Notes under the pieces: generated by a model
What the model was told of the DNA's origin: nothing
Databases searched by the model: none
The model's input: the letters and a program-made list of their open reading frames with translations, nothing else
Source: Promethearchaeota archaeon
Lineage (GTDB): Archaea > Asgardarchaeota > Lokiarchaeia > Sigyniarchaeales > SOKP01
DNA length: 30,482 nucleotides
Direction: 5' to 3'
Assembly (NCBI GenBank): GCA_048938445.1
Contig: JBHLME010000049.1
Location: 1 to 30,482 of the forward strand
Part shown: positions 15,681 to 17,791 of the stretch, in pieces
Position numbering within the stretch: position 1 is the first letter of the stretch
Layout of the letters: each line of letters starts with the position of its first letter
Program-made: the position numbers and the translations under genes

Positions 15681-15798
15681 GCAACGGTAGCCTAGCCTGG
15701 TAAGGCGCTGGCTTGGAGCGGTAATACCTACAAGAAGAAAAATGGTCCCAGAAAGCCAGTGTGCTCTGCACTCGGGGGTTCAAATCCCTCCCGTTGCG
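15681..15798 (+). tRNA. tRNA-Ser (GGA) with a canonical 37/38 intron (15719-15753)
   Basis: Acceptor GCAACGG/CCGTTGC, anticodon arm CTGGC-TT GGA G^A-GCCAG, variable arm GTGC-TCT-GCAC, TTCAAAT T loop, discriminator G, BHB helix TTGG/CCAG. Confidence 0.93.
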
Positions 15799-15907
15799 CT
15801 TTAAAATTAAGATTTTTAATCATAATTTGATAAAAATAAAAAATCGATATGTAACTATGGATCATATCTTTAATATCCAATTTGGGATTCTTGGACAATA
15901 CTTAAGG

Positions 15908-15921
15908 GAAAAGTTTATTAT
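15908..15921 (+). promoter_or_regulatory. putative BRE-TATA promoter for the leader-leuA transcript
   Basis: GAAAAG-TTTATTAT about 50 nt upstream of the leader ATG. Confidence 0.5.
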
Positions 15922-15971
15922 TTAGGAAAGGATAACTCTATATAATTAGCAATAAAATGTGTATTAAGGAA

Positions 15972-16082
15972 ATGAAAGTTACTCAAACACGATTTTTCAC
16001 TCGACCTGTGAACATTTTGAGTAGATTTTCTTCTTTAGGTTTATTGTTAAATTTATTAGGACTTCTCTTATTATTATTATGA
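15972..16082 (+). CDS. putative leucine-rich leader peptide (36 aa) of leuA
   Basis: MKVTQTRFFTRPVNILSRFSSLGLLLNLLGLLLLLL*. 12 of the last 15 codons are Leu. An in-frame alternative ATG lies at 15957. Not in the supplied ORF track. Confidence 0.75.
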   Translation: MKVTQTRFFTRPVNILSRFSSLGLLLNLLGLLLLLL

Positions 16083-16140
16083 GGAGTCTCTTCTCGTTCG
16101 GAAGGAATTGAACTCTTTCTTTCGGGCGGACAGGAGAGAC
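16059..16140 (+). promoter_or_regulatory. attenuator-like mutually exclusive hairpins
   Basis: GGACTTCTC(16059-67)/GAGGAGTCT(16081-89) competes with GTCTCTTCT(16086-94)/AGGAGAGAC(16132-40) plus CGTTCGGAAGGA(16095-106)/TTCTTTCGGGCG(16117-28). Confidence 0.7.
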
Positions 16141-16177
16141 GTTTAAAAAAAAAACAAATTTAAATAGGTAAAGGAAA

Positions 16178-17791
16178 ATGAATGAAAAAAAGGATATATA
16201 TGTCTCTGACATGATGGACAAGTTGCGAGATTCCCTGAATCTCCCTGAGAGAGCTTATTTTTTTGATACAACATTGCGTGATGGTGAACAGACACCAGGA
16301 ATTAGTTTCTCTCACGAAGAGAAGCTCGCCATTGCCCAGGCAATTAGTGATGTCGGAATTGACGTGATTGAAGCAGGAATGCCCATAACATCAGAAGGGG
16401 ATTTTGCAGCTTGTAAAGATATAGCAAAAATGGGCTTAAGTTCTGAAATAATGGGCCTTGCTCGAATTAAAAAAATTGACATAGATAGGGTCATTGAAGC
16501 GGATATGGATAGTATTCATGTTTTTATATCAACATCAGATTTGCATTTAAAAGAGCAGATGAAAATGACAAGACAAGAAGTCATTGATAGTATCATTGAA
16601 CAAGTGACTTATGCAAAGGAACATTATTCTACAGTTTTATTTTCGGCAATGGATGCAACTAGGACCGATTTAGATTATTTAATCAAAGCAAATAAAACTG
16701 CTGTAGAATGTGGAGCTACTCGAGTAAACATACCAGATACGGTAGGTACAATCACGCCTCTAGCATTTGGATATATCATCCGAAAAAATTACGAAGCATT
16801 GCCTAAAAATATTCGAATTGCTGTCCATTGTCATAACGATTTTGGCTTAGCCGTGGCGAATACTATTGCGGGATTTGAAAATGGGGCATCTGAAGCTCAA
16901 ACTACAATAATGGGACTTGGAGAAAGGGCTGGTAATGCTTCTTTTGAAGAAACAGCAATGTCTCTCTATGCACTTTATCAGATTCCAATGAATGTGAACA
17001 CGCGAAAAATATTTCCAACGGCAAAATTGGTTGAGAGTTATTGCGGTGGCAAAATTAGAATTGGACGCCTTCAACCTTTAATCGGGCAAAATGCATTTGC
17101 CCATGAATCTGGAATTCATGCCCATGCAATGATACAACATGCTCGAGCCTTTGAACCTATAACTCCGGAACTAATAGGAATTAAAAGAAATGATAGTGTA
17201 GATGAAATCGTCCGTCAATCAATAAAACTGGGAAAACATACGGGTGGTCATGCCCTCAGGGCCAAATTGGAAGAAATGGGATTGAACACTACAGATGGAC
17301 AATTTCAAAAAATCATGGAACACGTGAAAAGATTTGGTGATAAAGGACATGAAGTGACAGAAGAAGATTTACTGGCAATTGTAAAAGACGTGCTAGGAGA
17401 ATTACCTGAACAAGAGAAATATGTTAGTCTGGAAGAATTAACAGTCTTGACAGGCTCTGTCATTCCAACTTCTACGGTAAAACTGAAAATAAGGAATAAT
17501 GGTGATTTTATTGAAAGAATTGCTTCTTCAGTTGGAGTTGGCCCTGTAGACGCTTCAATAAAAGCAATTGTTAAATGTTTCGAACCGATGGGAAAAACTA
17601 AACTCCTTGAATATGGAATTGATGCGGTAACTGGAGGGACTGATGCTTTAGGGCATGTTACTATTGAAATCATGGATATTGAATCAAATCACATCGTAAA
17701 AACGAGCGCAACACACGAAGATGTCGTAATGAGCTCCGTTTTAGCTGTATTAAAAGGGCTCAATCTCATCATGAAGCATAAAAATAAATAA
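16178..17791 (+). CDS. leuA: 2-isopropylmalate synthase (LeuA/CimA family) with C-terminal regulatory domain
   Basis: Motifs DTTLRDGEQTPG, HCHNDFGLAVAN, GLGERAGNA, AHESGIH, LGKHTG and GVGPVDA. The Leu-rich leader favours LeuA over citramalate synthase. Confidence 0.85.
   Translation: MNEKKDIYVSDMMDKLRDSLNLPERAYFFDTTLRDGEQTPGISFSHEEKLAIAQAISDVGIDVIEAGMPITSEGDFAACKDIAKMGLSSEIMGLARIKKIDIDRVIEADMDSIHVFISTSDLHLKEQMKMTRQEVIDSIIEQVTYAKEHYSTVLFSAMDATRTDLDYLIKANKTAVECGATRVNIPDTVGTITPLAFGYIIRKNYEALPKNIRIAVHCHNDFGLAVANTIAGFENGASEAQTTIMGLGERAGNASFEETAMSLYALYQIPMNVNTRKIFPTAKLVESYCGGKIRIGRLQPLIGQNAFAHESGIHAHAMIQHARAFEPITPELIGIKRNDSVDEIVRQSIKLGKHTGGHALRAKLEEMGLNTTDGQFQKIMEHVKRFGDKGHEVTEEDLLAIVKDVLGELPEQEKYVSLEELTVLTGSVIPTSTVKLKIRNNGDFIERIASSVGVGPVDASIKAIVKCFEPMGKTKLLEYGIDAVTGGTDALGHVTIEIMDIESNHIVKTSATHEDVVMSSVLAVLKGLNLIMKHKNK

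Follow-up and report, generated by a model that had tools for sequence, protein, structure and literature searches.

How might an Asgard archaeon match the expression of a leucine biosynthesis gene to its supply of leucine? The question is raised by a contig of 30,482 nucleotides (nt) from a Promethearchaeota genome, referred to below as the window, in which an unannotated open reading frame (ORF) of 36 codons ends in a run of leucine codons, abuts a long hairpin and lies 95 nt before leuA, the gene for 2-isopropylmalate synthase. A first-pass annotation of this DNA read the arrangement as a ribosome-stalling attenuator of the bacterial kind, built around two mutually exclusive hairpins, A and B. 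Our analysis retains one part of that reading and drops the other. The leader-peptide sensor stands, on the strength of a conserved upstream ORF (uORF) with the cognate codons and of analogous leaders elsewhere in the genome; the bacterial alternative-hairpin mechanism does not, as hairpin A is not kept in relatives and there is no U tract. We put the probability that the element is a leucine-sensing leader of some kind at roughly 0.85, and the sensor is one whose output design is non-bacterial and rests on a single hairpin.

The small ORF itself is as the first-pass annotation described it: its coordinates, its ending CTT CTC TTA TTA TTA TTA TGA, the 12 leucines among its last 15 residues (LGLLLNLLGLLLLLL) and its distance from the leuA start codon at 16178 are all borne out by the sequence. 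Its MK start at 15972 is the start common to the relatives' leaders, and no Pfam family matched it. Such tails are rare in this genome (G000; 4.63 Mb, 29.6% G+C, 96.5% complete; the window is its contig C157). Of 42419 mechanically called ATG-ORFs of 12-70 aa, 20 have at least 7 leucines in the last 10 residues and only 5, the window's leader among them, have 8.

A search of 40 genomes of relatives yielded 26 full-length LeuA orthologues, with identities from 100% down to 55%, and in 21 of the 26 loci (L001-L021) a Leu-run ORF ends 82-115 nt before leuA; at L018 the distance is 362 nt and spans a run of N. A public scan at one genome per species added 80 named leuA loci, of which 78 were analysed and two (L089 and L131), without upstream DNA, were dropped. 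Where LeuA identity is at least 65% and 450 nt of upstream DNA are available, the leader is present in 30 of 31 public loci, the exception being L082, and over the relatives and the close public loci together the spacing is 82-125 nt. The leader-bearing public loci are labelled Promethearchaeota/Promethearchaeia or uncultured archaeon, except for one labelled Hermodarchaeota (L078). Two Asgard-type leuA contigs are filed under bacterial names, Candidatus Deferrimicrobium (L088, 57% identity) and Nanopelagicaceae (L089, 77%), and are probably mis-binned. Pooled, the two surveys give 51 loci with 43 distinct leaders, of which some tests used 41 or 42; being related, these cannot count as independent samples. 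Each of the 51 copies sits immediately before leuA. When leader and hairpin were searched as DNA against 25 genomes, 8 of 13 non-self matches fell just upstream of leuA; the other 5 were AT-rich and 23-42 nt long, and neither a full copy elsewhere nor a second copy in G000 was found.

What has been kept over this range is informative. Frame, position, leucine content and length (about 31-41 codons) persist down to 65% LeuA identity, and the N-terminal two thirds of the leader are not conserved. All six leucine codons are used (TTA 69%, TTG 12%, CTT 12%, CTC 4%, CTA 2.5%, CTG 1%), the leucine runs are interrupted at similar places across leaders, and Asn, Ser, Asp, Glu or Arg break up many tails. 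Leucine accounts for 63% of the last 16 residues in the 43 leaders and for only 15% of the N-terminal part, and it makes up 88% of the hydrophobic residues in those last 16 (Ile 1.9%, Val 1.7%, Phe 2.5%). In AT-rich genomes TTA, ATA, TTT and GTA are one step apart, yet leucine dominates, which fits selection for leucine codons and not for a membrane helix. Judged from these sequences, selection acts on the leucine codons as such and not merely on hydrophobic residues. The first-pass annotation had suggested looking for a conserved, frame-preserved leucine uORF with synonymous codon variation, and the 21 and 30 loci with their six codons are just that.

These observations bear directly on two simpler explanations. 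One is that the ORF runs by chance across a (TTA)n microsatellite in AT-rich DNA. TTA is indeed the commonest leucine codon (51%) at this G+C content, and 20 small ORFs of the genome have similar leucine-rich tails; however, conservation of frame, length, position and leucine content to 65% LeuA identity, the synonymous variation and the similarly placed interruptions already refute this reading as far as the comparison goes, and we give it next to no weight. The other is that the ORF encodes an independent small hydrophobic (membrane) peptide, which has its own promoter and 3' hairpin and merely neighbours leuA. In hydrophobicity the C-terminal 17 residues would suffice for a membrane helix; a promoter-like motif of its own precedes the ORF, a hairpin lies 3' of its stop, and in many relatives a Shine-Dalgarno (SD)-like AAGGA stands 6-12 nt before its ATG. 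However, a membrane helix would tolerate Ile, Val and Phe in place of leucine, which the 43 diverged leaders hardly use, and it would not sit well with the many tails broken by Asp, Glu, Arg or Asn. Nor would one expect an unconserved N-terminal portion without a Pfam family, or a peptide found 51 times out of 51 directly before leuA and nowhere else as a full copy. Together with the behaviour of the run residue in the parallel leaders described below, this makes an independent membrane peptide quite improbable.

Immediately beyond the leader's stop codon lies hairpin B, with a folding energy in the window of -26 to -27.9 kcal/mol (z -3.0 against dinucleotide shuffles, 1 in 200 of which fold as well). 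A hairpin is present at this place in 43 of 43 leaders, its first pair 0-6 nt after the stop and its length 40-61 nt (median 54), and against dinucleotide shuffles the median z is -3.9, with values below -2 in 36 of the 43. Its arms vary together. When the halves are exchanged between leaders, cognate halves pair at -18.7 kcal/mol and non-cognate ones at -10.4, the cognate partner being the best of 43 in 21 of 43 cases. The outer nine stem positions, of which the first three are paired by definition of the stem base, are canonical in 86% of cognate combinations, 59% of non-cognate ones and 55-59% when the arms are slid. The 5' arm occurs as 41 distinct 9-mers, each position shows three to six types of canonical pair, and pairing of arm with arm has a mean z of -5.16, below -2 in 41 of 42 leaders. 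We conclude from this comparison that hairpin B is conserved, with co-varying arms, at a fixed place, as the first-pass annotation had anticipated in naming the hairpin and proposing a search for co-varying stems. These tests are free of alignment and rest in part on predicted structures. RNAalifold on MAFFT alignments of the hairpin and of whole leaders returned 0 pairs because variable loops shift the arms out of register; this is a failure of alignment and not evidence against the hairpin. The MAFFT seed for a covariance model likewise had ragged 3' ends, so no model was built and the alignment-free tests were used instead.

The composition of hairpin B is also shared across the leuA leaders. 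Its 5' arm is 80% pyrimidine (CCTCTTC-like, resembling an anti-SD) and its 3' arm 77% purine (GGAGAGG-like, resembling an SD); no start codon was seen at a useful distance 3' of the SD-like arm in the leaders inspected. The 5' half of the leader ORF also tends to fold, codons 2-5 pairing with codons 15-19 (z below -2 in 16 of 42 leaders), often in relatives as a helix of the GCTTCAA/TTGAGGC type. In these predictions the Leu tract itself is unstructured and is flanked by structure on both sides, with the 5' helix before it and hairpin B after it. Upstream, the putative BRE-TATA (B recognition element and TATA box) of the first-pass annotation is present as an A-rich stretch followed by TTTATTAT at 15906-15921, 51-58 nt before the leader's start, and a similar motif (A-rich, then TTTWTAA) lies about 55-66 nt before the leader ATG in relatives, a regular expression for it matching in 19 of 43 leaders. 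With the usual archaeal spacing from TATA box to start site, the leader transcript would begin near 15945-15952 (ATTAGCAA).

If the run of leucine codons is there to report on leucine, other genes of the pathway might carry leaders of their own. We scanned the genome for small ORFs that lie between genes, upstream of long ORFs, and whose tail is rich in one residue or in Ile/Leu/Val (Table 1). The clearest case is an isoleucine-run leader, MKQKIIPSICIIASIIIGIIII, before citramalate synthase (cimA; TIGR00977, 674 bits, cut-off 450). Among 21 orthologous loci with sufficient DNA upstream, 13 retain it, and one more has it without its stop; isoleucine makes up 83% of the hydrophobic residues in these leaders, and a conserved hairpin, AGAAATTTTAAAC...GTTTAAAATTTCT, begins 1-11 nt after the stop in 13 of 13 (median z -2.8; cognate halves -13.7 kcal/mol, non-cognate -7.5). 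In the cimA leader at L044 (genome G008), CAA replaces the relatives' stop TAA and the frame extends by 65 codons, which may mark a decaying copy or a sequencing error. In another family of the order (L054, L055 and L056) cimA directly follows leuA and the Ile-run leader sits in the gap between them, so that one transcript may carry two different sensors in series.

A leader with a Leu/Val/Ile tail precedes the gamma subunit of a 2-oxoacid:ferredoxin oxidoreductase of the pyruvate/2-ketoisovalerate type and is kept, together with a co-varying hairpin that carries a run of T5-T8 in its 3' arm, in 11 of 16 loci (relatives L198-L211). This enzyme is possibly catabolic, which raises the question of the direction of the switch at that locus. 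Three further leaders lie before the branched-chain aminotransferase gene ilvE, an acyl-CoA mutase and an acyl-CoA dehydrogenase. A strong predicted hairpin begins at most 10 nt after the stop in 5 of the 6 leaders of the genome; in the acyl-CoA dehydrogenase leader a helix is visible in the sequence, but the minimum-energy fold draws another structure. Before the best TIGR00118 match in the genome (ilvB; 395 bits, cut-off 538, contig C162) no leader was seen. Although leuA, cimA and ilvE are present, G000 has no acetolactate synthase large subunit above the TIGR00118 cut-off, which may reflect a divergent enzyme, a gap or a route to 2-ketoisovalerate through the 2-oxoacid oxidoreductase.

That the run residue follows the downstream enzyme is a hallmark of leader-peptide control. 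Analogous cognate-residue uORFs, which the first-pass annotation had proposed to look for, are thus found before other branched-chain genes, namely cimA, the 2-oxoacid oxidoreductase and ilvE. The same pattern tells against the independent membrane peptide, whose run residue ought not to become isoleucine before citramalate synthase and a mixture of valine, leucine and isoleucine before the 2-oxoacid oxidoreductase.

Table 1. Positions of the features in the window, and of the parallel leaders on other contigs (C) and at other loci (L) of genome G000
Feature	Position	Strand	Basis and remarks
tRNA-Ser(GGA), 35-nt intron after position 37	15681..15799	+	Rfam RF00005, 47.9 bits; ARAGORN with intron option
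BRE/TATA-like promoter motif, purine-rich (A-rich) stretch then TTTATTAT	15906..15921	+	read from sequence
Leader ORF, 36 codons plus TGA, MKVTQ...LGLLLNLLGLLLLLL	15972..16082	+	read from sequence; ATG 15972, TGA 16080-16082; in-frame ATG 15957 would give 41 codons (+5)
Predicted helix in 5' half of leader ORF (ACTCAAA 15981-87 with TTTTGAGT 16015-22)	15979..16024	+	folding, z -1.0, weak here
Leu-codon tract, last 16 sense codons, 12 Leu; presumed sensing codons	16032..16079	+	sequence
Hairpin A (16059-67 with 16081-89)	16059..16089	+	first-pass annotation; present here, not conserved
Hairpin B, 55 nt, begins 3 nt after stop; pyrimidine-rich 5' arm, purine-rich SD-like 3' arm	16086..16140	+	folding, comparison
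Run of 10 A in spacer	16145..16154	+	kept only in closest relatives (L002, L005)
Conserved spacer motif AAATTTAAA, then SD-like TAGGT (16165-16169), 12 nt before leuA ATG	16156..16169	+	leader comparison
leuA, 2-isopropylmalate synthase with LeuA allosteric domain	16178..17791	+	Pfam, NCBIfam
Ile-run leader MKQKIIPSICIIASIIIGIIII, 109 nt before citramalate synthase (cimA)	C93:15107-15175; L031/L035	+	genome scan
Leu/Val/Ile leader tail ...ITLLLLVVVVIL, 89 nt before gamma subunit of pyruvate/2-ketoisovalerate-type 2-oxoacid:ferredoxin oxidoreductase	C74; L143/L197	-	genome scan
Ala/Ile/Val/Leu-rich leader tail ...SIIAAAIAAVAAVLL before branched-chain aminotransferase ilvE	C71; L142	-	kept in 7/19 loci
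Val/Leu-rich leader tail ...LVLLLSVLLLVVRVVVLL before acyl-CoA mutase	C206; L146	+	kept in 4/27 loci, all same genus
Val-rich ORF before acyl-CoA dehydrogenase	C117; L032	-	genome scan of G000

How, then, would the position of a ribosome on the leader be turned into expression of leuA? The first-pass annotation proposed a bacterial-type attenuator in which hairpins A and B exclude one another and stalling tips the balance between them, thereby controlling a terminator or a sequestering structure. In the window hairpin A can indeed form, with 9 pairs (2 of them G-U) at -10.9 kcal/mol, and it shares 4 nt with B; moreover, a short T stretch lies 3' of B in the closest relatives. The proposed switch nevertheless fails on comparison. 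In 42 leaders the leucine codons pair with the post-stop segment at -3.98 kcal/mol for cognate and -3.99 for non-cognate combinations, so that hairpin A, although formable here, is not kept. Since B is far stronger (-26 against -11 kcal/mol), A could not compete with it at equilibrium in any case. We found no terminator-like site on the + strand between 15600 and 16400, and no consistent U-richness is seen, across the 43 leaders, in the 12 nt that follow hairpin B. Eleven other pairings, comprising each arm of B against the downstream spacer with the leuA start, the last 60 nt of the ORF, the mid-ORF and the start region, as well as the leuA start region against the leader, gave mean z values between -0.66 and +0.31, none above shuffles, where arm with arm gives -5.16. 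A bacterial-type attenuator is therefore improbable, to about the same degree as the independent membrane peptide, and the coupling of transcription and translation that the first-pass annotation drew from it does not follow from the sequence.

In Rfam, at gathering thresholds, the whole window has only two matches, both to tRNAs, and none to Leu_leader (RF00512); with E values up to 10, the stretch 15800-16300 has 5 matches at chance level and no leader family among them. We also considered a hungry-codon frameshift from the leader into leuA and rejected it, because stops occur in both other frames: beyond the Leu run, the hairpin holds the +1-frame stop of 30 of the 42 leaders and the -1-frame stop of 27, and a stop within 20 nt of the leuA ATG is seen in only 5 (+1 frame) and 6 (-1 frame) of the 42.

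The identification of the downstream gene is secure. LeuA is 537 aa long, has the Pfam domains HMGL-like, HCS_D2 and LeuA_dimer (PF08502, E 2.3e-28), and scores 583.4 bits against NCBIfam NF002085 (cut-off 517), which agrees with the first-pass assignment; against the citramalate synthase family TIGR00977 it reaches only 214.6 bits (cut-off 450). Its start region has features of its own. In most of 41 leaders (T/A)AGGT lies 11-14 nt upstream of the leuA start, preceded by AAATT(T/A)AAA, and the pattern AATT[TA]AAA[TG]AGG occurs only 3 times in the 2161 gene upstream regions of the genome. AGGT within -20 to -5 is found at just 8.5% of the 2161 long ORFs, peaking at -11 to -13, while TATA-like motifs peak about 33 nt (roughly -32 to -36) upstream of the ATG. 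From this peak and the scarcity of AGGT most genes look leaderless, and most mRNAs of this genome probably are; by the same signals leuA looks exceptional, with internal initiation on a long leader. A second promoter within the spacer (TTTAAATA, 16159-16166) was considered and rejected for the annotated start, as it begins at -19 and lies outside the range of the genome's TATA-like peak.

With no terminator and no competing helix, a post-transcriptional, steady-state output is favoured. We suggest that the 36-codon ORF acts in cis as a leader peptide by which ribosomes would gauge the supply of charged tRNA-Leu, leader and leuA being presumably carried on one transcript from the promoter near 15906-15921. 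A single hairpin abutting the stop means that plenty and want can differ in where the ribosome stands. When charged tRNA-Leu is scarce, ribosomes would stall on the Leu tract (16032-16079) and hairpin B would remain closed; when leucine is plentiful, the ribosome would pause briefly at the stop, open the base of hairpin B and leave. Stalling would raise leuA expression: a ribosome parked on the U-rich Leu tract would block the pairing of that tract with the A-rich ribosome-binding region of leuA, with hairpin B, like a clamp, bringing the two close. The RNA may in addition be shielded while the ribosome is parked there.

Ensemble folding is consistent with such a scheme. The region from the SD to the AUG of leuA is predicted to pair mainly with the Leu tract (pairing mass 8.5 nt, compared with 4.0 for other parts and 0.1 for hairpin B). 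If the tract is masked to mimic a stalled ribosome, the modelled accessibility of this region increases, at 37 C from 0.47 to 0.59 and at 15 C from 0.41 to 0.51; a mask placed at codon 7 as a control has no effect.

Several findings weigh against the leader and, above all, against this output. The modelled change in accessibility is small, reaching at least 0.1 in 19-20 of 42 leaders and running in the opposite direction in 3-4. Set against codon-order permutations, the complementarity between Leu tract and start region has a z of only +0.13, and with shuffled start regions as the reference z is +0.29; cognate and non-cognate pairings are indistinguishable at -9.90 and -9.89 kcal/mol; the complementarity is thus no more than that of a U-rich against an A-rich composition. 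Pairing of this kind with an A-rich start is impossible for the Val- and Ala-rich leaders that share the design, so any mechanism common to all may be a different one. Hairpin B does not include the leuA SD, unlike the hairpins of the erm, cat, SecM and MifM systems. The sensing codon TTA is the commonest leucine codon (51% genome-wide, about 70% in the leaders). As for distribution, the element is missing from 5 of the 26 orthologous loci, which are the most distant ones and include G+C-rich ones, and it is seen in 0 of 43 public loci with at most 58% LeuA identity, among them Helarchaeota, Jord-, Borr- and Freyarchaeota, methanogens, Archaeoglobi and others. It is the small effect, the compositional nature of the complementarity and the poor fit to the Val and Ala leaders that lead us to set the probability of a post-transcriptional, steady-state route at only about 0.45.

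The strongest competitor accepts the leucine-sensing leader and changes its output. Here the stalled ribosome would act on premature termination or RNA cleavage by aCPSF1/FttA, the archaeal homologue of CPSF73, much as the tnaC ribosome acts on Rho in the tna operon: the U-rich, single-stranded Leu tract would be the entry or recognition site of the factor, and a ribosome stalled on the tract would occupy it and let transcription enter leuA. The layout speaks for it, with sensing codons at the 3' end of the uORF beside the stop and no competing helix, as in tnaC, and with the U-rich tract lying between the 5' helix and hairpin B. TTA TTA and a stop end 4 of the 6 leaders of the genome whatever their rich amino acid, and G000 encodes aCPSF1 (TIGR03675, 875 bits, cut-off 580). 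Excerpts of one paper (PMC8716108) state that archaeal termination signals differ from bacterial ones and that aCPSF1 binds U-tracts through its KH domains, as does a Lokiarchaeota orthologue, which suits the proposed role of the tract. Against this, not every Leu tract contains a U4 run, and the window's has none; there is no consistent U-rich stretch 3' of the hairpin; nothing synchronises polymerase and ribosome; and a 5'-3' torpedo would be impeded by a stable hairpin immediately beyond the site. Moreover, the published hypothesis that translational arrest favours FttA termination, in the part of PMC11616081 that sets it out, would give the wrong direction for a biosynthetic gene. We regard termination by aCPSF1/FttA as unlikely on balance, and as a good deal less unlikely than either the bacterial-type attenuator or the membrane peptide.

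The nearest upstream neighbour of the element, a tRNA-Ser(GGA) at 15681-15799, lies outside it and has no relation to leucine. Default-mode ARAGORN found no tRNA in the window, missing this one with its intron. A second tRNA, at 1-72, is cut by the window start.

Taken more broadly, the leaders invite a general proposal: that the branched-chain genes of Asgard archaea (Promethearchaeota), namely leuA, cimA, ilvE, the 2-oxoacid:ferredoxin oxidoreductase and the acyl-CoA enzymes, are run by cognate leaders with a non-bacterial mechanism, in which a single hairpin abuts the stop and the stopping position of the ribosome decides the fate of the mRNA, either by gating the access of aCPSF1/FttA or through re-use of the start region. 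In this full form we hold the proposal to be rather unlikely, though a shade less so than aCPSF1/FttA termination at leuA. A full-text literature search, which did not cover subscription journals, found no description of an archaeal amino-acid leader peptide, and a tool paper (PMC10219788) makes the general statement that regulation by uORFs extends to archaea. As far as this search shows, only bacteria have been described as sensing amino-acid supply through leader peptides. A well-conserved set of leaders matched to their products would mean that ribosome-read control evolved, or was kept, in Asgard archaea, whose ribosomes and polymerase resemble those of eukaryotes and whose mRNAs are probably leaderless for the most part, and in a design without the bacterial terminator and antiterminator. 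Such a leader would offer a short and genetically simple handle on functional transcription-translation coupling in these archaea, on archaeal ribosome stalls, and on termination or decay factors that read ribosome occupancy. There is a gain for annotation as well, as these unannotated small ORFs tell LeuA from its CimA paralogues.

How does the element compare with known systems? It fails the defining features of each of the closest ones, though it shares something with all of them. With leuL (Rfam RF00512), ilvL, ivbL, hisL, trpL, pheL and thrL it has in common a short, frame-conserved uORF with a run of codons cognate to the product, structured RNA between uORF and gene, and pathway genes whose leaders are rich in their own product. 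Unlike these classical attenuators, it has neither a U-tract terminator hairpin nor, as far as we found, the 1:2, 2:3 and 3:4 alternative helices; its sensing codons close the ORF and are followed at once by a single hairpin; it has no Rfam match; and its host is an archaeon. The sensing codon of E. coli leuL is a rare leucine codon, whereas here it is the commonest.

The leaders ermCL and those of cat/cmlA, SecM-secA and MifM-yidC2 share another part of the proposed scheme: in them a ribosome held near the 3' end of the uORF, beside a hairpin, alters expression of the following gene on full-length mRNA, without termination of transcription. There the stalled ribosome melts a hairpin that contains the SD of the regulated gene, whereas the leuA SD is about 25 nt beyond hairpin B and is not predicted to pair with it. 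Moreover, the stall signal here would be a lack of charged tRNA and not a drug or an arrest peptide. The tna operon of E. coli, with tnaC and Rho, offers another likeness: a ribosome stalled at the end of the leader ORF, no alternative RNA structures, and an output through the access of a termination factor to the RNA beside the stop codon. There the signal is free tryptophan acting on the nascent peptide, whereas at leuA it would be codon starvation, and the factor, if one takes part, would be aCPSF1/FttA.

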